Shown: positions 4,333 to 19,412, counted from the stretch's first letter. The stretch is 64,000 nt of DNA from Deltaproteobacteria bacterium (GCA_016874795.1 VGTG01000001.1:22735-86734); one strand, 5' to 3'. Program-made: numbers and translations. Notes: generated from the letters alone by a model not told the origin.

Positions 4333-5556
4333 ATGGAGAGCGTATCGCTGGAAGGGATCGACCTCCTCGGCCTCGAGAGCCATCGCGACGGCCCGCCGCA
4401 CGCGGCGTTCGCGCGGCTCCGCCGCGAGGACCCGGTCCACTGGCATCCCGAGGAGGGCGGCTCCGGCTTCTGGGCCGTGACGCGCTACCATGACGTCGTC
4501 CGCGTCTCGCGCGACTCCGAGACGTTCTCGTCGGAGCGCGGCGGCACGATGGCCTGGGACGCGGACGAGGCCCAGCTCATCGGCCTCCGGCAGATGATGC
4601 TCAACATGGACCCGCCGCGGCACAGCAAGCTGCGCGCGATCGTGAACAAGGGCTTCACGCCGCGCCGCGTCGCCGAGCTTCGCGGGAGGATCGGAGCGCT
4701 CTCTCGGGCGATCGTCGACGAGGCGCTCGCGAAGGAGGCGTTCGACTTCGTCGAGGACGTCGCCGGCGAGCTGCCGTCCTACGTCATCGCAGAGCTGATG
4801 GGCATCCCGCTCGACGACGGACGCGAGCTCTACCGCCTGACGGAGCGCATGCACACCACCGACCGGAGCGAAGCCGGGCGCATGGACGGCGCGCTCGCGA
4901 TCGGCGAGATGATGAACTACTCGCGCCGCGTGCAGGCCGAGCGCCGCGCGAAGCCGGGCGACGACATCGTGAGCGCGCTCCTCGCCGCGGAGGTCGACGG
5001 CGAAAAGCTCTCCGAGTTCGAGCTCGACATGTTCTTCATGCTGCTGATCAACGCCGGCGGCGACACGACGCGAAATCTCGTCGGCGGCGGGATGGAGGCG
5101 CTCTTCGAGCATCCCGAGGAGCGCGCGCGCTTGCAGAGGGACCTCGGCCTCCTCGATTCGGCGGTCGAGGAGATGCTCCGCTGGGTGACGCCCGTGATCC
5201 ACTTCCGCCGCACGGCGACGCGCGACGCGACCCTCGGCGAGCGCCAGATCCGCGCGGGCGACAAGGTCGTCGTCTTCTACACGTCCGCGAACCGGGACGA
5301 GGAGATCTTCCCCGAGCCGGATCGTTTCGACGTCGGCCGCACGCCGAACGAGCACGTCGCCTTCGGCGGCGGCGGAACCCACTATTGCCTCGGCGCGAAC
5401 CTCGCGCGGCTCGAGGGGCGGACGATGCTCGGTGAAGTGCTTCGACGCATGCCGGATCTCGTGCGCACCGGACCGATCGAGCGCCTCCACTCGAACTTCA
5501 TCCACGGGCCGCGGCGGATGCCGGTGTCCGTCCGCCCGCGCGCGGGCGCGACGTGA
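4333..5556 (+). CDS. Cytochrome P450 monooxygenase
   Basis: Heme-thiolate loop FGGGGTHYCLGANLA, ExxR (EEMLRW) and the I-helix NAGGDTT. Confidence 0.92.
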   Translation: MESVSLEGIDLLGLESHRDGPPHAAFARLRREDPVHWHPEEGGSGFWAVTRYHDVVRVSRDSETFSSERGGTMAWDADEAQLIGLRQMMLNMDPPRHSKLRAIVNKGFTPRRVAELRGRIGALSRAIVDEALAKEAFDFVEDVAGELPSYVIAELMGIPLDDGRELYRLTERMHTTDRSEAGRMDGALAIGEMMNYSRRVQAERRAKPGDDIVSALLAAEVDGEKLSEFELDMFFMLLINAGGDTTRNLVGGGMEALFEHPEERARLQRDLGLLDSAVEEMLRWVTPVIHFRRTATRDATLGERQIRAGDKVVVFYTSANRDEEIFPEPDRFDVGRTPNEHVAFGGGGTHYCLGANLARLEGRTMLGEVLRRMPDLVRTGPIERLHSNFIHGPRRMPVSVRPRAGAT

Positions 5557-7014: not shown

Positions 7015-7743
7015 TCAGTCTCCGCGAACGTAGCGCTGTCCGAAGCGAGTGAGGAGCATCGCCGCAGCTCCGACCGGGAGCCAGACCGTAGAGACGAGAA
7101 GCGCCAGGATCGCGCCGTCGAGGAGCGCCATTCCCGCGATCATCCAGGGAATCACCGGCCAAGAATAGCGACGACCGCGCTGATTCTCGTGTCGTGCAAC
7201 GACCGTGACGAGAAGCGTCCAGACGAGCTGCGCGATCCCGGCCAGCCACACGAGGCCCGGGACGGTGCCCGCGATCGCGACGGCGGTGACGACGTAGACG
7301 AGCGTCCGCGTCGCGGCCATCAGGAGAACCGTCCATGCCGCGGCCTTGTGCCAGCGGTCGTAGGCCCAGATCACCGCCAGCAGCACGAGGCCCGCGATCA
7401 CCGCGCTCGGATGCGGCGTGAAGAGCAGCAGCGACACACCCGCACCGAGGAGCACGACAGCGAGACGTATCGCCGCTGCCGCCGTGATCCGCCCCGCGGG
7501 GATCGGACGGAACGGCTGCTCGCGGGCGTCCCACTCGCGGTCGCAGAAGTCGTTCAGCACCATACCGCCGCAATACGAAGCGGAGAGCGCGACCATCAGC
7601 AGCAGCACGACGCCCGGCGCGAGAGCCGCGCCGGGCGAGCCGCTCGCGCCGGTGAGAAGCGCCGCCGCCAAGACGTTCATCCACACCGTCGGGAGGTTGC
7701 TGACGCGCGAGATCGCGAGCAGCGTCTTCGTGTCGACGGCCAT
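7015..7743 (-). CDS. eboC: UbiA-family prenyltransferase (EboC-like)
   Basis: Polytopic membrane protein with the NDFCDREWD (NDxxDxxxD) motif, located within the ebo gene set. Confidence 0.8.
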   Translation of the reverse strand: MAVDTKTLLAISRVSNLPTVWMNVLAAALLTGASGSPGAALAPGVVLLLMVALSASYCGGMVLNDFCDREWDAREQPFRPIPAGRITAAAAIRLAVVLLGAGVSLLLFTPHPSAVIAGLVLLAVIWAYDRWHKAAAWTVLLMAATRTLVYVVTAVAIAGTVPGLVWLAGIAQLVWTLLVTVVARHENQRGRRYSWPVIPWMIAGMALLDGAILALLVSTVWLPVGAAAMLLTRFGQRYVRGD

Positions 7744-7764
7744 GGCTCCGTCTCCGTCTTCGTC

Positions 7765-9129
7765 TCAGTCGCGGAAGAGGTGGTCGAGGATGCGATCGCG
7801 CACGTCCACCGCGCGGATCGACGAGGAATCGACGAAGCGCGGCTCGGAAGAAGCGAACACGGGGGTCTCCGGATCCGCGGTCGCGAGGCCGTGCGAGCCT
7901 TTCACGAGCGTCGCGTCGAGCGGCGTCAGCTCCATCGTGTAGCGAAAGCCGAGCGTCTTCCGTGCGAGCGTCAAGCCGGCGCGGACGTACGGCAGCGCGA
8001 GAGCCGGGTCGACGTAGAGCTCGCACGGATCGAAGCCGGGCTTCCGGTGGATCTCGACCATCCGCGCGTAGTCGGGCGCGCGCGCGTCGTCGAGCCAGAA
8101 GTAGTACGTGAACCAGCTGTCGGGCTCGGCGAGAAGCACGATCTCGCCGGACCGCTCGTGGTCGAGGCCGTGCGCGCGCTTCCCCGCGTCGTCGAGGATC
8201 TGCCCGATGCCCGGCACGCCGGTGAAGAGCTCCTTCACCGCGGCGACGTCCGCAGGATCGCCCACGTAGACGTGCGCGATCTGATGATCGGAGACGGCGA
8301 AGGCGCGGCTCGTCCCGGGATCGAGGTACTCGCGGCCGAGGTCGACCTTCACCCGGAGAAGGCCCGCCTCGCGCAGCAGCCGATTCGGGTGCACGGGCCG
8401 GCGTACCGGCACGATGCCGTACTCCGACAGCACGACGACGCGGAGCCCGCGCTCGCGGAAGTGGTCGATCAGCCGCCCCGCGACGGCGTCGATCTCGCCT
8501 AGATCGCGCGAAAGATCGGCTTCCGGACCCTCGCGCTGCAGGCAGTAGTCGAGGTGCGGCAGGTACACGAGCTGCAGCGTCGGCCGAAAGCGCTCCTCGA
8601 CGGCGATCGTCGCGTTCGCGATCCACTCCGAGGAGACGATCGAGGTGTTCGGCCCCCAGAAGTGGAACAGCGGGAACGTGCCGAGCTGCTTCGTCAGGTC
8701 GTCTCGCAGCTCGAGCGGGTACGTGTAGCAGTCCGGCAGCTTCAGCCCGTCCGCGCAGTAGAGAGGACGCGGCGTCAGGGACACGTCCGCGCGGGTCGCC
8801 ATCGCGTACCACCAGAAGGTGTTCGAGGAGGTGAACGACGGATCCCGCTTGCGTGCGACGTCCCAAACCTTGTCGCCCTGCACGAGGCGGTTGCTCTGCC
8901 GCCAGAGCCAGATCTCGCTCAGGTCGCGGAAGTACCAGCCGTTGGCGACGATGCCATGACCGGAGGGCGGCAGGCCCGTCGTATACGTGCTCTGGACGGT
9001 GCACGTGACGGCCGGCAGCACCGGTCCGATCGTCGCGACCTCCTTCGCGAACGCGGCGAGCCGCGGCGTGTGCGCTCCGAGCAGCCGGCGCGTCAGGCCG
9101 ACGACATCAAGGACGACCGTGCGATGCAT
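7765..9129 (-). CDS. eboF: Alkaline-phosphatase superfamily nucleotide pyrophosphatase/phosphodiesterase (EboF-like)
   Basis: LDVVGLT..LPAVTCTVQSTYTTGLPPSGHGIVANGWY metal/nucleophile region typical of type I phosphodiesterase/NPP. It overlaps the eboE 3' end by 23 nt. Confidence 0.8.
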   Translation of the reverse strand: MHRTVVLDVVGLTRRLLGAHTPRLAAFAKEVATIGPVLPAVTCTVQSTYTTGLPPSGHGIVANGWYFRDLSEIWLWRQSNRLVQGDKVWDVARKRDPSFTSSNTFWWYAMATRADVSLTPRPLYCADGLKLPDCYTYPLELRDDLTKQLGTFPLFHFWGPNTSIVSSEWIANATIAVEERFRPTLQLVYLPHLDYCLQREGPEADLSRDLGEIDAVAGRLIDHFRERGLRVVVLSEYGIVPVRRPVHPNRLLREAGLLRVKVDLGREYLDPGTSRAFAVSDHQIAHVYVGDPADVAAVKELFTGVPGIGQILDDAGKRAHGLDHERSGEIVLLAEPDSWFTYYFWLDDARAPDYARMVEIHRKPGFDPCELYVDPALALPYVRAGLTLARKTLGFRYTMELTPLDATLVKGSHGLATADPETPVFASSEPRFVDSSSIRAVDVRDRILDHLFRD

Positions 9130-10240
9130 CGATCCTCTGCCTGGCCCAGCGAAGCTCGCGCACGATCGAATCGCCGACCGAGCTCATGCGCAGATCCTCG
9201 GGGAGCACGTCGAAGGAGTAGGTCTCGACCTCGAGCGGAATCGCCGGATCGAGCCTCGGCAGGACGTCCTCGAGAAAGAAGCGCGTCGTCCCGCACGGAC
9301 CGAGGTGCTCCGCGAAGATCGGCACGTGGAAGTGTACTCGGCACTCCTCGATCGAAGAGCGCGTGGAGGCGTCGCGGCCGCGACCGTTCCCGCCGAAGAA
9401 CTCCGGCAGGTCGGCGGCGCGGTGCAGCGCTCCGTCCACGTCGCGCGCGACGACCTGATGCAGGTACGTGGGCTCGTCGAACTGGAGCAACCTCTCGATC
9501 TCCTCTCCGTGCGCGTGCAAGGCGGACGAGACCTGCACCTTGCCGATGACGATGCCGGCGGCCTGGATGGTGCGGAGGCTCTCCGCCGGATCCTCGAACT
9601 CGACCGCCTGGTGGCAGCAGTCGAAGCAGAGCCCGGCGCGCGACGCGAGCGCCGGCGGAAGGGCCAGGCGGTCGAAGAGCTCCACCGCCTGCTCCGTCGT
9701 CTCGACGACGCACGCCGACTCGGGCTCGAAGGCGAGGACGATCGACCGCCCGTGTCGCTGCGCGAGATCGTCGAGATGCTCGACCGCCGCGCGGACGTTC
9801 GCGCGGACGTGCGGCCAGTCGTCCTCTGCGAAGCCGTTCGTGAACGCGATCGGCGCCGTCGAGATCGAGCCGGGAACGCCCTCGGGCAACCACTCGACGA
9901 GTCGGTCGGCGATCCCCCTCGTATAGGCGACGCGCTCCTTGCTTCGCCAGTCGGGCTCGTAGACGCGCTCCTTGACGGACGTTCCGTGAAAGCGACCGTA
10001 GGGGAAGCCGTTGACGGTGAGGACGTAGAGATCGTTCACCTCGCACCACTCGCGGAAGCGTCGCGACTCCTCGTCCGTCAGCTCGTCGACCGCCTGAGCG
10101 GAAAGACGCAGGCCGATCGGAAACGCCTCCGTCGGCGAAACGCCGGCCTTGACGGCGATCAGGTGCGACTCGAGATTCGCGCGCACGTCCGCCCAGGACT
10201 CGCCCGGATGGATGTTCGTGCAATACGTCAGACGCCGCAC
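9107..10240 (-). CDS. eboE: TIM-barrel sugar-phosphate isomerase/epimerase-like 'metabolite traffic protein' EboE
   Basis: Characteristic N-terminus (M)RRLTYCTNIHPGESW and a xylose-isomerase-like barrel length. GTG start at 10240. Confidence 0.8.
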   Translation of the reverse strand: MRRLTYCTNIHPGESWADVRANLESHLIAVKAGVSPTEAFPIGLRLSAQAVDELTDEESRRFREWCEVNDLYVLTVNGFPYGRFHGTSVKERVYEPDWRSKERVAYTRGIADRLVEWLPEGVPGSISTAPIAFTNGFAEDDWPHVRANVRAAVEHLDDLAQRHGRSIVLAFEPESACVVETTEQAVELFDRLALPPALASRAGLCFDCCHQAVEFEDPAESLRTIQAAGIVIGKVQVSSALHAHGEEIERLLQFDEPTYLHQVVARDVDGALHRAADLPEFFGGNGRGRDASTRSSIEECRVHFHVPIFAEHLGPCGTTRFFLEDVLPRLDPAIPLEVETYSFDVLPEDLRMSSVGDSIVRELRWARQRIDASHGRP

Positions 10241-10625: not shown

Positions 10626-11771
10626 CTAATGAGGTCGGGACGCGTGATTGCGAAGATCCGCCACGCAGGAGCGCATCGTGCCAACGTCGATTTCACGAAC
10701 GTCGACACCGTGGCCGATGCGATCGATCAGCGTCACGCAGAGGTTGCCGCCGAGGTGCGCTCGAAAGTCCTCGAGCGCCTGCTCGACGTCGAGATGCTCG
10801 AAGACGGGGAGTGCTACGTCGAAGCCGAGATCGTCCAGCGTCTCGAAGATCGCGTGCCGTGCTTCGTCGGCGATGAGTCCCTTGCGGTTCGCGTAGAGAG
10901 AGTCGAGCGCGATGCCCGCGGCGACGGCTTCGCCGTGGCGCAGCTCGTATCCCGAGAGCTCCTCGAGCTTGTGCGCCGCCCAGTGGCCGAAGTCGAGGGG
11001 ACGGGCCGAGCCGAGCTCGAACGGATCGCCGCTCGTGCGGATGTGCTCGAGGTGGAGCTCGGCGCAGCGAACGACCATCTCCTCGGTCGCTTCGGGCTCG
11101 AACCGCGCGAGGCGCTCTCGGTTCTCGTGCAGCCAGCAAAAGAGCTTCGCGTCGCGGATGAGCGCGACCTTCACGGCCTCCGCGACGCCGGAGCGGCGGT
11201 CGCGCGCGCTCAGCGTCTCGAGGAAGTCGAGGTCGTTCAGGACGGCAAACGGCGGCACGAACGTTCCGAGAAAGTTCTTCCGCTGCTGGAAGTTGACCGC
11301 GTTCTTGACGCCGATCCCGGCGTCGTTCTGCGCGAGGACGGTCGTCGGAACGCGGAGGAGCCGCACGCCGCGGTGGACGAGCGCGGCAGCGTAGCCGGCC
11401 GCATCGAGGACGGACCCGCCGCCGATCGCGAGCACGAACGAGTGCCGACAGACGCCGTGCTGCGCGAGCAGACGGTGCAGCTCGTCGACGATCGACGGAT
11501 CCGACTTGGACGCCTCGCCTCCGGGGACGACGTGCGGCTCGGCGACGATCTCGAGCGACGGGTGCGCCCCGGCGTACGCCGTGATGCGCGCGGCGAGATC
11601 CGGCCAGGCGCGGAGGACGTTCTCGTCGACGACGACGACGGCGCGATGCGGTCCCTCGCCGGCGCGCGCGAGGACGTCCGCGAGCGTCGCGTTCTCCGGC
11701 GCGAAGACGGCGCGCGTGAAGATCACCGGGTAGCGGAACGAGACCGCGAACTCCTGCTCGATCTCACGCAC
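10626..11771 (-). CDS. eboD: 3-dehydroquinate-synthase-like sugar-phosphate cyclase (EboD-like)
   Basis: Motifs GGGSVLDAAGY, RVPTTVLAQNDAGIGVKNAVN and HGEAVAAGIA. I chose the GTG at 11771 (GGGAG 5-6 nt upstream), which overlaps the upstream gene stop by 8 nt; an alternative GTG lies at 11786. The N-terminal 200 aa of track ORF 10626..12407 is spurious. Confidence 0.82.
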   Translation of the reverse strand: MREIEQEFAVSFRYPVIFTRAVFAPENATLADVLARAGEGPHRAVVVVDENVLRAWPDLAARITAYAGAHPSLEIVAEPHVVPGGEASKSDPSIVDELHRLLAQHGVCRHSFVLAIGGGSVLDAAGYAAALVHRGVRLLRVPTTVLAQNDAGIGVKNAVNFQQRKNFLGTFVPPFAVLNDLDFLETLSARDRRSGVAEAVKVALIRDAKLFCWLHENRERLARFEPEATEEMVVRCAELHLEHIRTSGDPFELGSARPLDFGHWAAHKLEELSGYELRHGEAVAAGIALDSLYANRKGLIADEARHAIFETLDDLGFDVALPVFEHLDVEQALEDFRAHLGGNLCVTLIDRIGHGVDVREIDVGTMRSCVADLRNHASRPH

Positions 11772-13359
11772 GGCGGTCTCCCGCACCGGCGCGCGACGTC
11801 TCGGGGAGGACGAGCTTGTCGATGAAGCCCGTGAGCGGCACGGTTCCTTCCGGCCCCGGGATCGGCCGGCCGGGCGTGCCCATGCCCTGCGCGATGAAGA
11901 GCTCGCGGCCGCGCAGCGCGAGGTTCGTCGGCCCGTCGAGACCTTCCGCCAGGACGACGACCTCGCCCGTGTCGGGATCGATCGAGAGCAATCGGCCGGA
12001 GAAGCGGCGGAAGCCGCCGTGGCTCGGCTCGCTCCACAGCGCGGCGCGGTCGCGGATCGGATCTGCGAAGTCGCTGCAGAACTCGAGCACGTAGAGGCGG
12101 CCGTCGGGGCCGATCTCGAGATCGGTCGGCGCGGTGAGCCCCGTGACGAGCCAACGCATCTCGCCGGAGTCCGGATCGACGCGGACGACGCCGCCGGCGC
12201 GCGGCTCGAGCTCCGTGCCCTCTCCGCCTTCTTCGCCTTCCGTCGAGCCGGAGAAAAGCGTGACGAGAACGTCTCCGGAGCGCGGATCGTGTCGCAGGTA
12301 TCCGGGGACGGCGTCCTGCCCGCGCGGGAGCGGCGGCAGCTTGACGATGCGCCGCGAGCCGCGCTCGGGCTGGAGCTGCACGACCTCGTCGCTCGAGCTC
12401 GAGACACCGAGCCAGATCCCGCGCTTCGGGTCGAACGCGACGTCGTTGATGTTGCCGTACACCCGGCTCCACTCGCGCACCTTCCCGCCGTCGACGCGGT
12501 AGATCGTCGAAGGGCCTCCGAAGTACGCGAGGCTGACGAGCGTCGTTCCGTCGCCCTCGGCCATGCCGGCCATGCCGAAGACCTCGTCGCGGCGGACGAT
12601 GTCGACGATGTTCTTGGACTCCCGTCCGTTCAGGAGCTCGCGGCGCTCGCCCGGTCCGTCGAACCGGCCGTCGCCGTTCTCGTCTTCGAGGCGGAGGAGA
12701 GCGCCCGTCGCGGGCTTCGCGGGATCCCCCGTCCCCGCGACGGAGACGAGGAGCGCGTCGCCGGCGCGCGCGAGCATGCCGCGCGGATTCTCGAGGTGGT
12801 CCGCGACGCGGACGCGGGGAACGAGCTGCTTCGCCGGCGCGAGGGGCACCGCGACGGCGTCCGCGCCCACGACCGGGCCCGATGCGCCACTCGGCCGGGC
12901 GGTCCGCGCCGTCTGCGCCGTCTGCGCCGTCTGCGCCGCGCATCCACCGGCGAAGAGAAGGACCACGCAGAGAACGAGAGGCGCCGTCCGTGCGGCGAAG
13001 GGGCGCGCCGACCGGCGCGCGCAGCCGACCGCCGCGACCACCGCCATCCACAGGCCGCAGATCGCGAGCCCGAGCGACTCGCGCACCTCCTCGATGTCGA
13101 GCGACGCCATCCCGAACGAGGAGAACGCCGACGCGGCCGCACCACCCGCGTTCCCCGGGGTCTCCCGCCACGCGAAGAAGAGGTAGAGCGCGCCCGCGAT
13201 CGCGCTCGCGCGCGGGAAGTAGCGTCCCCGTCCCGACGCGAACGCCGACGCCGCGGCGATGCCGTACGCGAGGATCCAGATCGCGGGATCCGGATCGTTC
13301 GTCTGCACGACGACCGCGAAGGCGAAGAGGACGAAGGCGATCCAGGAAGCCAGGCGCAT
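11764..13359 (-). CDS. Fusion protein: N-terminal TMEM220-family 4-TM domain + fossil lipoprotein signal (TM5) + periplasmic beta-propeller-like domain (531 aa)
   Basis: Starts MRLASWIAFVLFAFAVVVQTNDPDPAIW, which carries the TMEM220 signature VQxNDPD. Positive-inside loops are RGRYFPR and RRSARPFAAR, and there is an internal lipobox-like LLFAGGC. The C-terminal roughly 390 aa has repeated G-x-hydrophobic strand motifs (GPDGRLYVLE, GPTNLALRGRELFIA). The upstream part of track ORF 11764..13923 is antisense to eboB. Confidence 0.72.
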   Translation of the reverse strand: MRLASWIAFVLFAFAVVVQTNDPDPAIWILAYGIAAASAFASGRGRYFPRASAIAGALYLFFAWRETPGNAGGAAASAFSSFGMASLDIEEVRESLGLAICGLWMAVVAAVGCARRSARPFAARTAPLVLCVVLLFAGGCAAQTAQTAQTARTARPSGASGPVVGADAVAVPLAPAKQLVPRVRVADHLENPRGMLARAGDALLVSVAGTGDPAKPATGALLRLEDENGDGRFDGPGERRELLNGRESKNIVDIVRRDEVFGMAGMAEGDGTTLVSLAYFGGPSTIYRVDGGKVREWSRVYGNINDVAFDPKRGIWLGVSSSSDEVVQLQPERGSRRIVKLPPLPRGQDAVPGYLRHDPRSGDVLVTLFSGSTEGEEGGEGTELEPRAGGVVRVDPDSGEMRWLVTGLTAPTDLEIGPDGRLYVLEFCSDFADPIRDRAALWSEPSHGGFRRFSGRLLSIDPDTGEVVVLAEGLDGPTNLALRGRELFIAQGMGTPGRPIPGPEGTVPLTGFIDKLVLPETSRAGAGDRRA

Positions 13360-13385: not shown

Positions 13386-14282
13386 CTAGTTCGGGACGGG
13401 CTGGTCGACGCGCGGCTCCTGGCCGCGCAGGACGGAGTTGTCGTTCCAGAGGCTTCGCTGATCGATCACGGGCGAGCGCGCGAGCGCTTCGAAGTCGATC
13501 TGGCCGGACTGGCCGTACGCGTCGAGAGCGTTCTTCCAGGTCGTCAGCTCGACGACGGCGGGAGCCACCCCGCGCTCGAGCATGCGCTGCGCCGTGCGCG
13601 GCACCGCGAGTGGATCGCTGACGCCCCAGTCCGCGGAGCTGTCGACGAGGAGGCGCTCGCCGCCGTAGCGCAACACGATCTCGACCATGCGCTCCGTTCC
13701 CATCTTGGTGTGCGGATAGATGCTGAACGCGGCCCACGCACCGCTCGCGAGGACGTCGTCGATCGTCTCCTCGTTGTTGTGATCGATGATCAGCTTCGAC
13801 ATCGGGATACGCATCTCCTCGGCGATCGCGAGGGAGCGGCGGATTCCGGTCTTCTTGTCGCGATGCGGGGAGTGCACCATCACGACCATGTCGTTCTCGC
13901 GCGCGACCTCGAGCTGCGCGCAATAGGCCTGCTCCTCCGCGGCGGTGATCTCGTCGAAGCCGATCTCGCCGATCGCGACGACGCCTTCCTTGAACGCGAA
14001 GCGCGGCAGGAGCTCGAGCACCTCGCGCGCGAGCGGCTCGTTGTTCGCCTCCTTCGCGTTGAGCCCGATCGCGCAGTAGTGCGCGATGCCGAACTGCGCG
14101 GCGCGGAAGCGCTCCCAGCCGACGAGGCTCGAGAAGTAGTCGACGAAGCTGCCGGCGCTCGTGCGCGGCTGGCCGAGCCAGAAGGCCGGCTCGATGACGG
14201 CGCGGATGCCGGCGCGCGCCATCGCCTCGTAGTCGTCGGTGGTGCGGCTCGTCATGTGGATGTGCGGATCGAAGAAGCGCAT
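13386..14282 (-). CDS. eboB: TatD-family metal-dependent hydrolase (EboB-like)
   Basis: MRFFDPHIHM metal-binding His pair, MVHSPH, and amidohydrolase-fold length. Confidence 0.85.
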   Translation of the reverse strand: MRFFDPHIHMTSRTTDDYEAMARAGIRAVIEPAFWLGQPRTSAGSFVDYFSSLVGWERFRAAQFGIAHYCAIGLNAKEANNEPLAREVLELLPRFAFKEGVVAIGEIGFDEITAAEEQAYCAQLEVARENDMVVMVHSPHRDKKTGIRRSLAIAEEMRIPMSKLIIDHNNEETIDDVLASGAWAAFSIYPHTKMGTERMVEIVLRYGGERLLVDSSADWGVSDPLAVPRTAQRMLERGVAPAVVELTTWKNALDAYGQSGQIDFEALARSPVIDQRSLWNDNSVLRGQEPRVDQPVPN

Positions 14283-14283
14283 C

Positions 14284-15180
14284 TCAGCTCCCTTCGGCGG
14301 CGAGCGCCGCGAAGGCCGTCTGATCGCACCGTCCCGCGCGCGCGTCCGCGAGAGAGCGAAGAGCGTCGGGGTCCGTCTCTTTTTCCGCGAGGTCGCGGAG
14401 GCGATCGGTCGCGCCCGCGCGCGCGAGTGCGAGAACGGCGGCGCGACGCGCGCGCGGATCCGGCACGCCGAGCTCGTGCTCGAGCGCGGCGAGCCCGCGA
14501 TCGCCGGCGTGCACGCCGAGGCAGAGCCAGAGCTCGTGCGGGATCGGCCGACCTGCGCTGCGCCGCTCGTCCGCGAGGTCGAGCGCCATTCGCGCCATCT
14601 CCGGCGAAAGGCGACGATCGAGCCCGTACACGCGCCAGAGCGGCGCCTCGATGAAGACCGCCTTGATCACGAGCTGGCGCCACGCGACTTCGTCGAAGAA
14701 ATGCGCCGGATACGGCGTGTCGCACGCCGTCGCTTCGAAGACGGTCTTGAGGTTCGTCCGGCAGCCTTCCCCGGCGCGCCACGCGAAGCGCTCGCCCCCG
14801 GGCAGATGGGCGAGCGCGCGGTAGAGAGCCTGCAGCTCGCCCTGGTCGGCGTAGCGGAAGCACTCCTCGAGAGCTTCGGGGAACGCGTCGCCGGCGGGGT
14901 CGGGATGCGCGACGAGGAGACGCACGCGCAGCGCTTCGAGGGTCGTCCAGCGCTCCGGATTCCAGCCCGGCAGCCCGTCGGCCGCCTGCTGCTTCTCCTC
15001 CGCCGTCGGCTCGAGGAGGCCGCGAGGCGCATGGCGGCTCGCCTGCGAGAGGAGGCTCGCGAGACGCATCGCGGACGCGCCGGCATCGATCTCACGGTCG
15101 CTCCGCCGGAGCCATTCGAGCGCTTCCGGACGGAGGCGGCGCTCGAGCATCTCGTCGAAACGTGTCTTCGTCGGAGTCAT
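14284..15180 (-). CDS. eboA: EboA-position protein (helical, C-terminal HEAT-like repeats)
   Basis: First gene of the cluster, ending 1 nt before the eboB start. ATG at 15180 (MTPTKTRFDEMLERRL). It has no enzymatic motif; the call rests on position and general resemblance to EboA. Confidence 0.6.
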   Translation of the reverse strand: MTPTKTRFDEMLERRLRPEALEWLRRSDREIDAGASAMRLASLLSQASRHAPRGLLEPTAEEKQQAADGLPGWNPERWTTLEALRVRLLVAHPDPAGDAFPEALEECFRYADQGELQALYRALAHLPGGERFAWRAGEGCRTNLKTVFEATACDTPYPAHFFDEVAWRQLVIKAVFIEAPLWRVYGLDRRLSPEMARMALDLADERRSAGRPIPHELWLCLGVHAGDRGLAALEHELGVPDPRARRAAVLALARAGATDRLRDLAEKETDPDALRSLADARAGRCDQTAFAALAAEGS

Positions 15181-15319: not shown

Positions 15320-15703
15320 ATGACGATGAAGATCCGTCCCGACGAGCCGATCGAAGAGTTCGCCCGGCGGTTCCGGGCGGAGCACGCAGAGGCGCCGCTC
15401 GGCCCGGTCGCGAACAAGGTCCTGGTCGACAACGACCGCGTGCGGATCTGGGAGCTGAGCCTCGAGCCGGGCGAGGCGTCGAGCCTGCATCGCCACGATC
15501 TCGACTACATGGTGATCCTGCTCGACGGCGACCGCATCGCCGGCATCCCCGGACCGGCCTCGACGCGCGGCGGGCGTGCCGCCGACGTGGTCCCGGGCCG
15601 CGTCGCCTATCTGAAGCGCGGCGACACCGAGTGGGCCGTGAACATCGGCGACAAGCCGTACCGCGAGCTCCTGATCGAGCTGAAGGACTCGTCGTCGACT
15701 TGA
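15320..15703 (+). CDS. Cupin-domain protein (127 aa)
   Basis: Single cupin barrel signature (LEPGEASSLHRHDLDYMVILLDG ... GDTEWAVN). ATG at 15320 with AAAGGA upstream. Transcribed divergently from eboA. Confidence 0.7.
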   Translation: MTMKIRPDEPIEEFARRFRAEHAEAPLGPVANKVLVDNDRVRIWELSLEPGEASSLHRHDLDYMVILLDGDRIAGIPGPASTRGGRAADVVPGRVAYLKRGDTEWAVNIGDKPYRELLIELKDSSST

Positions 15704-16470
15704 CGCCTGCGCAGCGACAGGGCTGGGAGCGCGACGGCTTCTTCATCGTCGAGAGCTTCGCGCCCGCGTCGACGCTCGAAGCGATGACGGAGCGCATCGT
15801 CGCGCTGGCGCGCGCGGCGGAGCGCGGCGAGGACGTGAGCCCCGCGATCGTGCTTCCGGAGCCCGCGCTCGCGAGCCTCGAAGCGCCGGCCGAGAAGAAG
15901 CTCTCGAAGCTCTTCCGCGTCCATCGACAGGAGCCGGTGTTCCGCGAGTTCTGCGCAGCACCGGCGACGCTCGACCTCGTCACGCCGATCCTCGGCGAGG
16001 AGGTCGACTGCTTCCTCTCGCAGTTCATCTTCAAGCATCCCGGCGCGCTCGGTCAGCCGTGGCACCAGGACGGCTGGTACTTCCCGTTCGATCGCGGGCC
16101 GCAGGTCGGGCTCTGGCTCGCGGTAACGGAAGCGCGGCTCGACAACGGACCGCTCTGGGTGCTGCCCGGATCGCACCTCGAGCCGGTGCACGAGGTCGTT
16201 CCCGACCGGCGGCCGAACGCGCAATTCAGCTACGTCGAGATCGTCGACCACGACATGGAGCGCGCCGTCCCCGTGCGGATGGAGCCGGGCGACCTCCTCG
16301 TCTTCCACAGCCACCTGATGCACCGCTCGACGGACAACCAGAGCGACCGCGGCCGCGCGGCGATGGTGTTCCACTACGGCGAGGCGGGAACGGTCGATCG
16401 GAGCGAGGAGAAGTTCGGCTTCGTGCCGCCGAACGTCGACTGGATGCCGGTGCGCCGGCGCGCGGCCTGA
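15700..16470 (+). CDS. Phytanoyl-CoA dioxygenase (PhyH) family Fe(II)/2OG oxygenase
   Basis: GWERDGFFIVE, WHQDGWYF (HxD), and HSHLMHRS. The proposed TTG start at 15700 overlaps the cupin stop (TTGA). The upstream part of track ORF 14239..16470 is antisense to eboA. Confidence 0.82.
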   Translation: MTPAQRQGWERDGFFIVESFAPASTLEAMTERIVALARAAERGEDVSPAIVLPEPALASLEAPAEKKLSKLFRVHRQEPVFREFCAAPATLDLVTPILGEEVDCFLSQFIFKHPGALGQPWHQDGWYFPFDRGPQVGLWLAVTEARLDNGPLWVLPGSHLEPVHEVVPDRRPNAQFSYVEIVDHDMERAVPVRMEPGDLLVFHSHLMHRSTDNQSDRGRAAMVFHYGEAGTVDRSEEKFGFVPPNVDWMPVRRRAA

Positions 16471-16485: not shown

Positions 16486-16654
16486 CTCAGAGTCTGTGAA
16501 TCAATCCCCTCCCGTCGCCGGAAGGCCGATGCATCCCTGCCTGCTGCGTTGCTCCTCCTGGGCATAGCCTACGGCTATGACTCGTCGTCGCGCCTTGCAG
16601 GCGGGGCGCCTCGACCTTCCGGCTCGGTCCGGGGATCGATTCACAAACTCTCAG
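16486..16654. repeat. 169-bp multi-segment inverted-repeat element between convergent genes (MITE-like, structured RNA or bidirectional terminator)
   Basis: Terminal 24-nt inverted repeats 16486-16509 and 16631-16654 match at 21/24. Inner pairings are GCCGGAAGG (16517-25) with CCTTCCGGC (16615-23), CCCTGCCTGC (16535-44) with GCAGGCGGGG (16597-606), and an apical CATAGCC/GGCTATG hairpin. Confidence 0.7.
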
Positions 16655-17070
16655 CGGAGCACGGCGCCCGCGATCGCGAGGAGCAGCGACGCGATCGAGA
16701 TCGTGTTCAGCATCGCGGAGGCGCGGTGCAGCCGGTCGAACCGCGGATCTTCGGCGTCGAGCCCCTCGTAGCGCGGCAGCAGCACCTCCCCTCCGACGAG
16801 CGAAGCGACCACGGCGACCGCGACCGGAACGGCGAGTCGCGCGAGCTCGGCTTCGGCCAGGCCCTCGCGCCCGAGCAGCAACGCCGCGAGCGCGACGAAG
16901 CCGAGAGCCGTGCCGACGCGATACGTCCGCCGGAACATCGGACGGAGGAAGCGCCGCGCGTCCGCCGACGGAAACGAGCCGTGTGCGACCGGCGTCACGA
17001 CGAAGGAGAGGCAGAGGAGGCTCCCGAACCAGGCGGCGACCGCGAGCGTGAAGATCAGCCGAAGCGGCAT
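16651..17070 (-). CDS. DUF4149/TMEM205-like 4-TM membrane protein (139 aa)
   Basis: ATG at 17070. MPLRLIFTLAVAAWFGSLLCLSFVVTPVAH is typical of DUF4149, and there are four hydrophobic segments. Confidence 0.6.
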   Translation of the reverse strand: MPLRLIFTLAVAAWFGSLLCLSFVVTPVAHGSFPSADARRFLRPMFRRTYRVGTALGFVALAALLLGREGLAEAELARLAVPVAVAVVASLVGGEVLLPRYEGLDAEDPRFDRLHRASAMLNTISIASLLLAIAGAVLR

Positions 17071-17133
17071 TTCGGCTTCGATACCGCGATGCCATCCGAT
17101 AGGGAAATCCCGGGGACCGGAAGGTCGCCTTCG

Positions 17134-17850
17134 ATGAGACGCACGCGAAGCACGACGAGAAGAGACGCGGCCGACACCGCGGCACTGGCGGCGGCGCTCG
17201 ACGAGCGCGGTCACGCACGTCTTCCGGGCCTCCTCGACGCGAGCGCATGCGAGCGTCTCATCGCGCTCTACGCGGAGCGCGAACGCTTCCGGAGCTTCAT
17301 CGACATGCGGCGGCATCGCTTCGGCGAAGGCGACTACCGCTACTTCGCGCATCCGCTTCCGCCGATCGTGCAACAGCTTCGCGAGCGGCTCTACGCGGCG
17401 CTGGCACCGATCGCGAACGCGTGGGAGGAGCGGCTCGAAACGGGGCGCTCGTTCCCGCCGCGTCTCGAGAGCTTCCTCGCCGTCTGCCGACGAAGCCGCC
17501 AGAAGCGGCCGACGCCGCTCCTCCTCCACTACGAGGCAGGCGGCTACAACTGCCTGCACCAGGACCTCTACGGGCCGGTCTACTTCCCGCTGCAGGTCGC
17601 GTGTCTTCTCTCGCGACCCGGCCGCGACTTCGAGGGCGGCGAGGTGCTGCTCGTCGAGCAGCGGCCGCGAAGCCAGTCGCGCGGCGAGGCGATCGTGCTG
17701 GAGCGGGGCGAAGGGCTCGTCTTTCCGTGCCGCGAGCGGCCGATCGAAGGTGCGCGCGGCGCGTACCGGGCGCGCGTGCGCCACGGCGTGAGCACGCTTC
17801 GGTCGGGCGAGCGCTTCACGCTCGGCATCATCTTCCACGACGCCGAGTGA
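17134..17850 (+). CDS. 2OG-Fe(II) oxygenase (prolyl-hydroxylase-like) family protein
   Basis: LHQDLYG (HxD), a distal His/Arg region (RVRHGVSTLRSGERFTLGIIFHDA), and ATG at 17134 with GGAAGG 9 nt upstream. Confidence 0.78.
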   Translation: MRRTRSTTRRDAADTAALAAALDERGHARLPGLLDASACERLIALYAERERFRSFIDMRRHRFGEGDYRYFAHPLPPIVQQLRERLYAALAPIANAWEERLETGRSFPPRLESFLAVCRRSRQKRPTPLLLHYEAGGYNCLHQDLYGPVYFPLQVACLLSRPGRDFEGGEVLLVEQRPRSQSRGEAIVLERGEGLVFPCRERPIEGARGAYRARVRHGVSTLRSGERFTLGIIFHDAE

Positions 17851-18138: not shown

Positions 18139-19329
18139 TCAGCCGAAGCGGACCGGGAGACGATCCGGCGAGCGGAACGCGAGCCCGACGATCCGACAGT
18201 CGACGTCCGGGTCGAGGCGCAGCGCCGACAGCCGGTCGAGCATCGCCGAGACCGCGATCCGCGCCTCGACGCGCGCGAGATGCGAGCCGAGGCAGAAGTG
18301 CTCGCCGAAGCCGAAGGCGACGTGGTCGCTCTTGTTCGCTCGATGGATGTCGAAGCGGTCCGGGTCCTCGAAGCGCCGCTCGTCGCGATTCGCGGAGCCG
18401 ACGGAGAGGATCGCGAGCTCCCCCTTCGGCGCGACGTGCCCGTCGATCTCGAAGTCCCGCGTCAGCTCGCGCGAGGTGAACTGGACGGGCGACTCCCAGC
18501 GCAGCGTCTCGTCGATCGCGTCGTCGAGGAGGCTCCGATCCGCGAGCACCTCCTCGAGCTGCTCGCGGTGCGTGAGGAGCGCGTAGAGGACGCTTCCCGT
18601 CAGCCGAAAGGTCGTCTCCGCTCCGGCCGGGAGCAGCAGGCGCAGGAAGCTCAGCACCTCCTCCTCGCTGAGCCGCTCGCCCTCGACCTCGGCGTGCACG
18701 AGCGTGCTCAGGAGGTCCGTCGTCGGCGCATTCCGTCTCTCCTCGAGGATGGGGCGAAGGTAGCCGACGATCGCCTCGGCCGCGGCGAAGCCTTTCCCCG
18801 GGTCGTCGGCGACCGAGATCAGGTCGAGCGCCCACTGATGGAACTCCTCGAAGTCGGAGATCGGGATCCCCATGATCCCCGCCATCACGCGGAGCGGGAA
18901 GGTCATCGTGAACTGTCCGACGAGGTCCGCTTCGCGGTCGCGCTCGAACTTGTCGATCAGGTGGTGCGTCGTCCTCTCGACCTCGCGTTCCACCTCGCCG
19001 CGAAGGGCGCGCAGCGAGAACGACGGTGTGACGATGCGGCGATGGCGCAGGTGCTCCTGGCCCTCCATCTCGAGGATCGTCCGCCCCATGACGAGGCCGA
19101 TGCCGCGGGCGTTGCCGCGCGGCGAGAAGAGCTCGCCGTTCTTCAGGCCAGCGGCGACGTCGTCGTAGCGCGAGACGAGGTAGCTCGTGTCCATCCAGCC
19201 GCTCAGCGCGACGATCGGCCGCTCGCGGCGAAGGCGAGCGTAGACCGGATACGGATTCGGCACGGGGCTCATGACGGAGCCGCCGAAGAGGAGGGTCGCG
19301 TTCTCGACGGAGACGTGGGGTTCGCTCAT
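18139..19329 (-). CDS. Cytochrome P450 monooxygenase (second copy)
   Basis: FGFGEHFCLGSHLA heme loop, ETLRW (ExxR) and AGAETT I-helix. ATG at 19329 with GAGGAG 7 nt upstream. Confidence 0.9.
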   Translation of the reverse strand: MSEPHVSVENATLLFGGSVMSPVPNPYPVYARLRRERPIVALSGWMDTSYLVSRYDDVAAGLKNGELFSPRGNARGIGLVMGRTILEMEGQEHLRHRRIVTPSFSLRALRGEVEREVERTTHHLIDKFERDREADLVGQFTMTFPLRVMAGIMGIPISDFEEFHQWALDLISVADDPGKGFAAAEAIVGYLRPILEERRNAPTTDLLSTLVHAEVEGERLSEEEVLSFLRLLLPAGAETTFRLTGSVLYALLTHREQLEEVLADRSLLDDAIDETLRWESPVQFTSRELTRDFEIDGHVAPKGELAILSVGSANRDERRFEDPDRFDIHRANKSDHVAFGFGEHFCLGSHLARVEARIAVSAMLDRLSALRLDPDVDCRIVGLAFRSPDRLPVRFG

Positions 19330-19360
19330 GGTGTGCTCCTCGCGGGCGGGGGTACGGTGT

Positions 19361-19412
19361 CGTTCGACCGATTGAATCAAACGCTTGATTCCCCGACAAG
19401 TCGATCGGAACG
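19361..19412. promoter_or_regulatory. Imperfect palindrome upstream of P450 #2 (putative operator)
   Basis: The core GAATCAA-acgc-TTGATTC (19374-19391) is nested in an outer CGTTCGACCGATT / (A)ATCGATCGGAACG symmetry. It lies 45-62 nt upstream of the P450 start and is AT-rich for this genome. Confidence 0.3.

Follow-up and report, generated by a model that had tools for sequence, protein, structure and literature searches.

The ebo genes (eboA-F) occur as clusters in approximately 3% of genomes (3,304/124,295), and a 2026 preprint assigns them to the biosynthesis of thallusin, reporting the metal-chelating properties of that compound and finding no enzyme for the conversion of saccharoquinoline to thallusin. 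In Nostoc punctiforme, scyE and ebo mutants accumulate the same scytonemin monomer, and ScyE, a periplasmic protein, is assigned to a late biosynthetic step (PMC6282210); it is the putative catalyst of the final oxidative step in scytonemin synthesis, downstream of ebo. Cyanobacterial ScyD, ScyE and ScyF bear a C-terminal PEP-CTERM sorting domain (PMC12188702). The Pseudomonas EDB cluster reportedly has three extra genes. A propeller or TMEM220 accessory is mentioned neither in the thallusin preprint nor in the ebo papers, and literature searches on ebo with TMEM220, on internal lipoboxes and on ScyE-like proteins found nothing relevant. Searches for the function of any TMEM220 member, bacterial ones included, likewise found none, in keeping with a first-pass annotation of this DNA, which was aware of no function for bacterial TMEM220 proteins.

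The window analysed here is a 64,000-nucleotide stretch of a Deltaproteobacteria bacterium genome (GCA_016874795.1 VGTG01000001.1:22735-86734). It contains, on the minus strand, an ebo operon interrupted by an additional gene (11764..13359) encoding 531 aa and running from an ATG at 13359 (MRLASWIAF...) to a TGA at 11766-11764; its full-length homologues, 99% and 49–64% identical, come from independent assemblies. Translation of 11764-13359 on the plus strand was full of stops and gave no ORF. The first-pass annotation, which had described a 531-aa ORF between eboB and eboD with its stop over the eboD GTG, had the coordinates right; the strand is minus, and all the sequence features it named (QTNDPDPAIW, the n- and h-regions, C140, the AQT linker, GPDGRLYVLE and GPTNLALRGRELFIAQG) were found in the minus-strand translation. 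Upstream lie eboA (14284..15180; NF035938 EboA_domain, 148 bits against a cut-off of 50) and, directly adjoining, the TatD-family hydrolase gene eboB (13386..14282; PF01026), which is 79–85% identical to the syntenic gene in four other loci (L001, L008, L034, L041) and whose TAG is separated from the fusion-gene start by 26 nt. Downstream, the fusion-gene stop overlaps the start of eboD by 8 nt (GTGCGTGA), the eboD GTG being at 11771. This gene encodes a DHQS-like sugar phosphate cyclase of PRK06203 type (10626..11771; NF004852, 550 bits) and is followed by eboE (9107..10240; NF035939 TIM_EboE, 412.6 bits against a cut-off of 250), eboF, of the phosphodiesterase/alkaline phosphatase family (7765..9129; PF01663, Phosphodiest, 190 bits), and, at the operon end, a short UbiA-type, eboC-like prenyltransferase gene (7015..7743; PF01040, 74 bits), whose product scores 94 bits on NF035940 EboC, under the cut-off of 250. 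All of these genes share its strand, and the fusion gene is a co-directional, translationally coupled member of the ebo operon. The approximately 8 kb around it also hold genes for an alpha/beta hydrolase, P450s, DUF4149, PhyH and Oxygenase-NA proteins, and no scyA-C-like neighbours. Internal in-frame starts (ATG105 and GTG107) are present in the gene; neither is conserved among homologues, and an internal translation start was therefore judged unlikely.

Residues 1-116 (13012..13359, minus strand) make up a TMEM220 domain with transmembrane helices at residues 2-21, 25-43, 49-66 and 90-116. Pfam TMEM220 (PF15071) matched with 63.2 bits against a gathering threshold of 27, residues 11-108 aligning with profile positions 1-98 of 100, and the AF2 model of the domain alone (pLDDT 92.5) consisted of four long helices, bearing out the four-helix TMEM220 domain first proposed. 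Eleven residues (Q19, N21, D22, P23, D24, W28, Y32, E90, R93, E94 and G97) were invariant in 95 bacterial TMEM220 proteins including the fusion domain, which retains the pattern QxNDPD...W...Y...EExRE..G. Foldseek returned no significant match for this domain alone (best E 2.3), and hence no solved relative of the fold; a likeness to four-helix proteins of the SMR, DsbB or VKOR type was rejected, having neither Foldseek support nor conserved Cys pairs. Across 17 fused homologues, basic residues prevail in the N-terminus, loop 2 and loop 4 (mean K+R 1.1, 0.9 and 2.7, with D+E approximately 0), and acidic ones in loops 1 and 3 (D+E 2.0 and 4.8). This charge pattern, together with the N-terminal lipoprotein signal peptides of all stand-alone homologues, which are lipoprotein precursors, places the propeller outside the cytoplasmic membrane. 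The prediction agrees with the proposed topology of a cytoplasmic N-terminus and five transmembrane helices, and no cytoplasmic C-terminal domain, which would have spoken against it, is predicted. The QxNDPD and EExRE motifs are predicted to face the periplasm.

Between the two domains, residues 114-139 (12943..13020, minus strand) form, on hydropathy and charge analysis, a signal-peptide-like segment that would cross the membrane from inside to outside as a fifth helix, and that aligns with the N-terminal signal peptides of stand-alone homologues. It comprises a basic n-region (ARRSARPFAAR) and an h-region (TAPLVLCVVLLFAGG) followed by C140; the uncharged stretch TAPLVLCVVLLF precedes AGG-C140, and the h/c-region is 15 residues long. 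In the homologue alignment the lipobox is A137-G-G-C140 (12940..12951, minus strand). The elements of a signal peptide II (basic n-region, uncharged h-region and lipobox [LVI..][ASTVIG][GAS]C) are thus all present, as had been claimed, within the reading frame; their location is not N-terminal, the Cys being residue 140, after four transmembrane helices. A Tat signal was considered and rejected, there being no Tat-like motif behind the RR of the n-region, which itself varies in homologues. As for the export signal of the ScyD/ScyE family, the internal lipoprotein-type segment appears to supply one, and the positive-inside pattern agrees. Beyond the lipobox, residues 141-171 (12847..12939, minus strand) are a hypervariable, disordered linker (pLDDT <50 at residues 144-158 in AF2; column conservation 8–40%), with an AQT/ART repeat encoded by 4.1 tandem copies of a 9-bp unit at 12902-12938.

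Conservation within this segment was very uneven. C140 was invariant in 25/25 aligned fused and stand-alone proteins, and the lipobox Cys aligned in 137/151 sequences, the remaining 14 being N-truncated or misaligned; among fused proteins the residue at -1 was G, A or S and that at +2 was A or S in every case (100%), and stand-alone homologues likewise keep G, A or S at -1. By the E. coli rule, alanine or serine at +2 would permit sorting of a lipoprotein to the outer membrane. The h-region, the linker and the columns flanking the lipobox were at most 45% conserved. Because the Cys and the small -1 residue are kept in all fused proteins amid an otherwise scrambled segment, the internal signal is probably still lipidated and cleaved, and its description as a fossil in the first-pass annotation is not supported.

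Residues 172-518 (11806..12846, minus strand) are modelled by AF2 as a six-bladed beta-propeller of 26 strands, mostly at pLDDT >90 (full-length model pLDDT 89.3, pTM 0.81), and Foldseek with the full model recovered generic six-blade propellers (E ~1e-9, probability 1.0), in line with the propeller-like repeats seen earlier. A relationship to ScyD/ScyE had been suspected and is now shown: the family profile NF033206 was matched by 120/120 family members (best E 2.9e-29), and hhalign of the 120-sequence family against 15 ScyE-family proteins gave a probability of 100% (E 2.5e-39, 273 columns, residues 182-491), the comparison set being 15 remote search matches, six of which were scanned against NF033206 and scored 134–281 bits. 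The fusion protein itself scores 69.1 bits, below the cut-off of 80, over profile positions 217-324 of 333 only; intermediate relatives exceed the cut-off over the full profile length (among them P0258, 91.5 bits, and P0264, 91.9 bits). By these profile comparisons, the propeller belongs to the ScyD/ScyE family as a divergent branch. Close relatives are few, with 56 representatives at E<=1e-30 among 1.84 billion, and a PDB search with the propeller profile gave nothing better than E=0.003, with single-blade NHL-like matches only. Top Foldseek neighbours include enzymes (strictosidine synthase, PON1, virginiamycin B lyase, PAL) and the matches also include non-enzymes (YncE, the PknD sensor domain, TolB, lectins); since only generic propellers are matched, no catalytic type can be assigned. 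Approximately 45 propeller positions are invariant in 120 sequences, for example R257, D258, E259, N303, N305, Q348, D349, E376, H447, R456 and R498. The C-terminus (...LVLPETSRAGAGDRRA) has no hydrophobic helix and no PEP motif with basic tail, and no helix is present beyond residue 443 of the AF2 model.

The two halves of the protein also exist apart. Approximately 100 stand-alone propeller relatives carry N-terminal lipoprotein signal peptides, and in four loci (L029, L030, L031 and L035) TMEM220 and lipoprotein-propeller are separate, adjoining genes, with overlapping stop and start in L031. These arrangements support the earlier proposal that a lipoprotein gene has fused to a TMEM220 gene and, as far as gene order can tell, the fused partners are functionally coupled. 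A single origin of the fusion was not supported: fused proteins were not monophyletic on the propeller tree (0/100 NJ bootstraps, from NJ on ~345 columns, a weak method), implying repeated fusion or fission.

Linkage to ebo was found in four arrangements. The order eboA-eboB-fusion-eboD-eboE-eboF-ubiA is shared by the present locus and five others (L001, L008, L009, L034, L041; L009 has a probable eboD frameshift); in L039 the fusion gene precedes eboA-eboB-eboF, with ubiA, eboE and eboD opposite; in L015 and L018 a stand-alone lipoprotein propeller is convergent with eboF; and in L027 TMEM220 adjoins eboD, with the propeller two genes away. TMEM220 alone adjoins eboD in two further loci (L117, L119). 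EboE identities in ebo-linked loci range from 37% to 71%. However, 0/80 other metagenomic EboE loci had the propeller and 2/80 had TMEM220, and in the nearest ebo clusters eboB is followed directly by eboD, the absence of the propeller from the 80 loci indicating that the fusion gene is dispensable for the core ebo pathway. The co-occurrence count suggested by the first-pass annotation thus revealed a linkage that is recurrent, yet confined to few lineages. Many family members, including the fused L002, L010 and L011, have no ebo genes within 10 kb. A general association of TMEM220 with ebo was rejected, as 3/4 additional stand-alone TMEM220 contexts had neither ebo genes nor propeller. A second neighbourhood recurs in the four loci with separate genes, namely a module of SDR, lipoprotein propeller, TMEM220 and TonB-dependent receptor, while L036 contains, of this set, just TMEM220 and the orthologous receptor; the module suggests that a small molecule is handled in the periplasm. 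The ebo-linked loci examined showed no TonB-dependent receptor.

The explanation that we regard as moderately probable, judging from these sequence comparisons, is that a two-part envelope module with a live lipobox has been inserted into the ebo operon and acts in the periplasm on the ebo product. Its first part is the four-helix TMEM220 inner-membrane domain, both of whose termini are predicted to lie in the cytoplasm and its conserved acidic motifs to face the periplasm; the second is the ScyD/ScyE-family propeller, carried across the membrane by the fifth hydrophobic segment, a lipoprotein-type signal peptide. Lipidation of Cys140 by Lgt and cleavage ahead of it by LspA would yield a five-helix TMEM220 protein and a mature lipoprotein propeller at 1:1, and so recreate the two-gene state of other lineages. 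Both would work on a prenylated, membrane-associated ebo product (a thallusin-type meroterpenoid, precursor or close analogue), the propeller possibly as the part that catalyses or binds, as the analogy with ScyE suggests, and TMEM220 perhaps as its partner in the inner membrane, handing over or accepting the lipid-soluble ligand. The first-pass annotation had set the gene among others thought to deliver a prenylated cyclitol-type intermediate to the periplasm, and had proposed its product as a candidate periplasmic acceptor or processing enzyme; the ebo location stands, the processing role is putative, and the view of the cluster has shifted, with the 2026 preprint, to thallusin biosynthesis.

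As in the model of the first-pass annotation, the fifth helix could be an anchor only, so that a single 531-aa protein keeps the propeller beside TMEM220 on the periplasmic side of the inner membrane, a possibility to be taken seriously though not, we think, a likely one. In its favour, the reading frame runs on unbroken, homologues retain the fusion, the full-length model has a high pTM, literature searches found no documented LspA processing at an internal lipobox, and nothing would hold two parts together more simply than a covalent joint. For anchoring alone, though, a Cys and a small -1 residue would be superfluous, yet both are 100% conserved in fused proteins while the rest drifts; the hydrophobic stretch is short and signal-peptide-like, with 12–19 residues from the last charged residue to the lipobox Cys in the alignment of fused proteins; and the ancestral, extant state is two separate polypeptides. 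That the whole arrangement is an artefact of assembly or frameshift, or its ebo position an accident, is scarcely credible. All sources are metagenome-assembled and one shows the probable eboD frameshift noted above, but approximately 17 homologues or clusters from independent samples and assemblers, at 49–99% identity, retain the fused architecture, which rules out a stop codon lost through assembly error; the four gene orders and the spread of EboE identities argue likewise, and the rarity of ebo clusters among genomes makes chance adjacency negligible.

The module could serve uptake or recycling instead of a tailoring step in biosynthesis, the pair handling a small molecule that arrives through a TonB-dependent receptor, such as a thallusin-like metal chelate, and in ebo operons serving re-uptake, sensing or self-protection. 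We consider this rather unlikely: the four-gene set with its receptor, the partial set in L036, the metal-chelating nature of thallusin and the many family members outside ebo clusters all favour it, but the receptor is missing from the ebo-linked loci examined, translational coupling with eboD fits a pathway component, and ScyE, the closest of the characterised relatives, has been assigned a late step of biosynthesis. A propeller without catalysis, like many of the six-bladed kind, acting in binding, as a scaffold or as a chaperone, for example in passing a hydrophobic product from inner to outer membrane, is unlikely, although the non-enzymes among the Foldseek matches, the failure to find a cofactor or catalytic motif, and a +2 residue that would, after processing, permit outer-membrane sorting are consistent with such a role. 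The invariant positions, many of them charged or polar, are more typical of an active site, and among the top structural neighbours are also enzymes whose substrates are small aromatic or lipophilic molecules. On the boldest reading, one gene might yield two envelope proteins through its internal lipobox, the ScyE-like lipoprotein with TMEM220 being the missing late-oxidation enzyme on ebo meroterpenoids, for instance from saccharoquinoline to thallusin; this is a speculative proposal and an improbable one, but were it true it would explain mechanistically the shared phenotype of ebo and scyE mutants in Nostoc, and would give TMEM220, including the human protein, a first function as membrane partner of a lipid-ligand-handling enzyme.

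The two-part envelope module matters in three respects. Comparative genomics links ScyE-type periplasmic propellers to the ebo pathway outside cyanobacteria, and this linkage bears on the present dispute about ebo, seen either as exporting scytonemin precursors or as making thallusin. The fusion, the operonic pairing and the two recurring neighbourhoods provide the TMEM220 family with a partner and a cellular context. The conserved internal lipobox, moreover, is a candidate case of lipoprotein processing within a polytopic precursor.

Compared with the ebo/thallusin pathway, the fusion gene is coupled to and co-directional with eboA, B, D, E, F and the UbiA gene, yet it does not count among the six defined ebo genes, and 80/80 other ebo loci sampled lack it. 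Like ScyE and ScyD, the fusion protein has a homologous propeller, predicted to cross the cytoplasmic membrane and to remain attached to a membrane, and tied genetically to ebo. It differs in that ScyE and ScyD have a Sec signal and a C-terminal PEP-CTERM anchor, whereas the fusion has a lipoprotein signal and no PEP-CTERM; it belongs to a small separate branch under the family cut-off, joined to TMEM220, in Myxococcota-like (non-cyanobacterial) genomes; and, in the approximately 8 kb scanned, it does not share the scy operon context, with scyA-C, of cyanobacterial ScyD, ScyE and ScyF. With strictosidine synthase, PON1, SGL/SMP-30, virginiamycin B lyase and PAL the propeller has its overall fold in common, at 10–18% identity and TM-scores of 0.45–0.78 on the target, no shared catalytic residues being established with these six-bladed enzymes. 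Its membrane domain resembles the TMEM220 family (PF15071; human TMEM220) in exceeding the threshold and keeping the family-invariant pattern, but the typical bacterial member is a stand-alone protein of 110–150 aa, whereas in the fusion protein it continues into a fifth helix and a 390-aa periplasmic domain. For the proposed processing, one parallel is FbcH, the Bradyrhizobium cytochrome b-c1 polyprotein, which is cut at an internal signal peptide by signal peptidase I. FbcH, like the fusion, consists of a polytopic domain, an internal signal peptide and a periplasmic domain, and cleavage frees its two partners; the difference lies in the enzyme, the lipobox of the fusion implying, by prediction, Lgt and LspA in place of signal peptidase I.

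The fusion gene occupies the minus strand, running over 531 codons from an ATG at 13359 to a TGA at 11766–11764, and translation of the + strand of 11764–13359 gave no ORF. A real gene does therefore lie where the first-pass annotation had placed one, on the minus strand, and every motif which that annotation cited was found in the minus-strand translation. Its start follows the eboB stop by 26 nt and its stop overlaps the eboD start (GTGCGTGA); G+C of the window is ~70%. Along the minus strand, eboA (EboA_domain, 148 bits) and eboB (TatD family) precede the fusion gene, and eboD (PRK06203, 550 bits), eboE (TIM_EboE, 413 bits), eboF (Phosphodiest), a short UbiA prenyltransferase gene (7015–7743) and an alpha/beta hydrolase gene follow it in that order. 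The prenyltransferase gene lies at the operon end, not between eboB and eboD, and its 242 aa product (233–236 aa for the counterparts in related loci L001 and L041) matched only positions 3–209 of the 292 in the EboC profile, with 94 bits against a cut-off of 250, a score nearly equalled by that against the SCO3242 family. Five genes beside the operon (15649–16470, 17101–17850 and 4333–5556 on the plus strand, 16651–17073 and 18139–19380 on the minus strand) encode a PhyH-type Fe/2OG dioxygenase, an ‘Oxygenase-NA’ (PF09859), two cytochrome P450s and a DUF4149 membrane protein; of these, the P450 and DUF4149 genes paired upstream of eboA are kept in L001 and L041.

Residues 11–108 of the product match Pfam TMEM220 (63 bits, cut-off 27). 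An AlphaFold2 model of the full 531 aa, built from a 120-sequence alignment (pLDDT 89.3, pTM 0.81), places helices at 2–21, 25–43, 49–66 and 90–116, a fifth starting at residue 122, a disordered segment at 144–158, and 26 strands between residues 182 and 517, forming six four-stranded blades and two closing strands. Hydropathy and charge put the N-terminus inside, the NDPDP and acidic EExRE loops outside, the GRGRYFPR and ARRSARPFAAR loops inside, and TM5 running from in to out; the mean charge pattern of 17 fused homologues matches this topology. Following the lipobox Cys, linker residues 141–153 (12902–12938, minus strand) are encoded by a 9-bp tandem repeat specifying AQT/ART units. This repeat is evolving quickly, since its composition differs between P0001, a 99%-identical homologue (AQT x2, ART x3), and the window (AQT x3, ART x2).

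A search of 5.8 billion proteins recovered 291 relatives, ~17 of them fused (497–531 aa, 49–99% identity, with Pfam TMEM220 precomputed) and the remainder propellers of ~390–410 aa; an exhaustive search added two fused representatives, P0244 and P0245. Given these fused homologues, and a 99%-identical protein present in independent samples, assembly error was ruled out as the source of the fusion. Every full-length stand-alone homologue bears a lipoprotein signal peptide at its N-terminus (for example ...CMVGC, ...ALLGC and ...LACAC), and four loci have TMEM220 and the lipoprotein propeller as two genes side by side, which converge in L029, L030 and L035 and stand in tandem with overlapping stop and start in L031. 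These observations support the earlier proposal that a lipoprotein gene had fused to a TMEM220 gene, and the two look like a Rosetta-stone pair. On a neighbour-joining tree of the propeller domain, a weak method, fused proteins fell at three places and were monophyletic in 0/100 bootstraps, which suggests that fusion or fission happened repeatedly. A different fusion was seen in P0249 (817 aa, representative library), where an N-terminal BNR/sortilin-like region of ~450 aa precedes a propeller of the same family at residues 455–805.

The signal embedded between the two domains had been described as a ‘fossil’, a description that its conservation argues against. Cys140 is the sole invariant residue from TM4 to the first propeller strand in a 25-sequence alignment, and the lipobox Cys is aligned in 137/151 sequences, the other 14 being N-truncated fragments or misaligned yet with a lipobox of their own. 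All fused proteins have G, A or S at −1 and A or S at +2, amid columns that drift (4–45% conservation near the Cys, 8–40% in the downstream linker). The last charged residue precedes the Cys by 12–19 residues, a span typical of signal peptides and not of stable anchors. Were the segment an uncleaved plain anchor, tethering the propeller through TM5, neither the conserved Cys, −1 and +2 residues nor the short span would be needed; from this we infer that Lgt and LspA probably still act on the internal lipobox, and the precursor would then give two products, a TMEM220 protein with five TM segments and a mature lipoprotein. No precedent for an internal lipobox came up in a literature search, and the cytochrome b-c1 polyprotein precedent involves signal peptidase I. 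A second lipobox-like string, AVGC (residues 110–113; 13021–13032, minus strand), closes TM4 at what is predicted to be its cytoplasmic end; homologues do not conserve the string, which is probably meaningless.

The window protein itself gave a partial match to NCBIfam ScyE_fam of 69 bits, under the 80-bit cut-off, and 120/120 family members matched that model (best E 2.9e-29). With HMMER run exhaustively against 1.84 billion representatives, the family proved to be small (56 matches at E<=1e-30, 1,129 at E<=1e-3), its remote matches being bona fide ScyD/ScyE proteins at 134–281 bits, and profile–profile comparison with ScyD/ScyE over window residues 182–491 gave a probability of 100% (E 2.5e-39, 27% identity). 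By sequence, the propeller thus belongs to the ScyD/ScyE family, as had been suspected, and forms a divergent branch within it. Foldseek matched only generic six-blade propellers, a sequence search of the propeller against the PDB was empty, and Foldseek with the AlphaFold2 model of the TMEM220 domain found no solved structural relative.

Among ~35 distinct loci inspected starting from the propeller, ebo genes were adjacent in four arrangements: eboA-eboB-FUSION-eboD-eboE-eboF-ubiA (the window, L001, L008, L009, L034 and L041); FUSION-eboA-eboB-eboF with ubiA, eboE and eboD on the opposite strand (L039); a stand-alone lipoprotein propeller convergent with eboF (L015 and L018); and TMEM220 convergent with eboD, the propeller two genes off (L027). 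Across these, EboE identity to the window ranged from 37% to 71%. As ebo clusters are present in only ~3% of genomes (2026 preprint), the association is far from chance. Sampled in reverse, the propeller was found at 0/80 metagenomic EboE loci and divergent TMEM220 beside eboD at 2/80 (L117 and L119), and in the nearest ebo clusters eboB abuts eboD; the fusion gene is therefore not part of the core ebo set but an insertion particular to certain lineages. Three ebo loci that differ in other respects have a stand-alone TMEM220 gene immediately beside eboD, and two of the three have no propeller nearby: L117 (TMEM220 474–830, minus; eboD 1059–2153, plus), L119 (3–257, minus; 390–1532, plus) and L027 (7193–7576, plus; 7587–8801, minus). 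In an unrelated ebo locus (L116 115–2076, minus strand), an ORF of ~650 aa adjoins eboF and matches the ScyE family weakly (27.5 bits). The eboD of L009 (6111–7248), a MAG contig of low coverage (cov 2.5), was recovered as two overlapping tblastn pieces, and a frameshift or a misassembly in the record is the probable cause.

Published work locates ScyE in the periplasm and reports that scytonemin monomer accumulates both in the scyE mutant and in all ebo mutants; it proposed that export through ebo precedes an oxidative dimerisation that depends on ScyE (PMC6282210). In a 2026 preprint ebo instead serves thallusin biosynthesis, by way of a cyclitol from EboD, aspartate and the farnesylation of a hydroxyquinaldate by EboC; the preprint notes that thallusin chelates metals and names no enzyme for the oxidative step from saccharoquinoline to thallusin. 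The best-supported reading is that the TMEM220–propeller pair acts in the periplasm on a lipophilic ebo product or analogue: the propeller would be the catalytic or binding component and TMEM220 its inner-membrane partner, with conserved acidic motifs facing the periplasm. Other possible candidates for the unassigned oxidations of ebo products are the oxygenases and P450s that flank the operon. The role of the pair may be biosynthetic tailoring or else uptake and recycling; in non-ebo contexts the latter is favoured by a second recurring arrangement, SDR–propeller–TMEM220–TonB-dependent receptor (L029 3491–8097; L030; L031 9249–13370; L035 5895–10252). L036 has TMEM220 and the orthologous receptor alone, and no ebo genes were found near fused copies in L002, L010 and L011, near many stand-alone propellers or near other TMEM220 genes (L037 and L038). 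We hold the structural and evolutionary claims with high confidence, and the functional ones with only moderate confidence.

The four-gene receptor module occurs in Binatia and Deltaproteobacteria MAGs, with receptors 59–75% identical. DUF3604 genes (L002 11579–13837, minus strand; L040 5515–7442 and 13377–15392) adjoin both the non-ebo fused copy P0032 and the stand-alone propeller P0023, in the latter case together with SDRs and alpha/beta hydrolases.

All component parts belong to known families. The searchable literature yielded no account of the fusion architecture, the conserved internal lipobox or the recurrent triangle of TMEM220, ScyE-like propeller and ebo outside cyanobacteria, and it is these that are new. 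Cyanobacterial ScyD/ScyE proteins, by comparison, carry a PEP-CTERM anchor, whereas the propeller of the window is without one.
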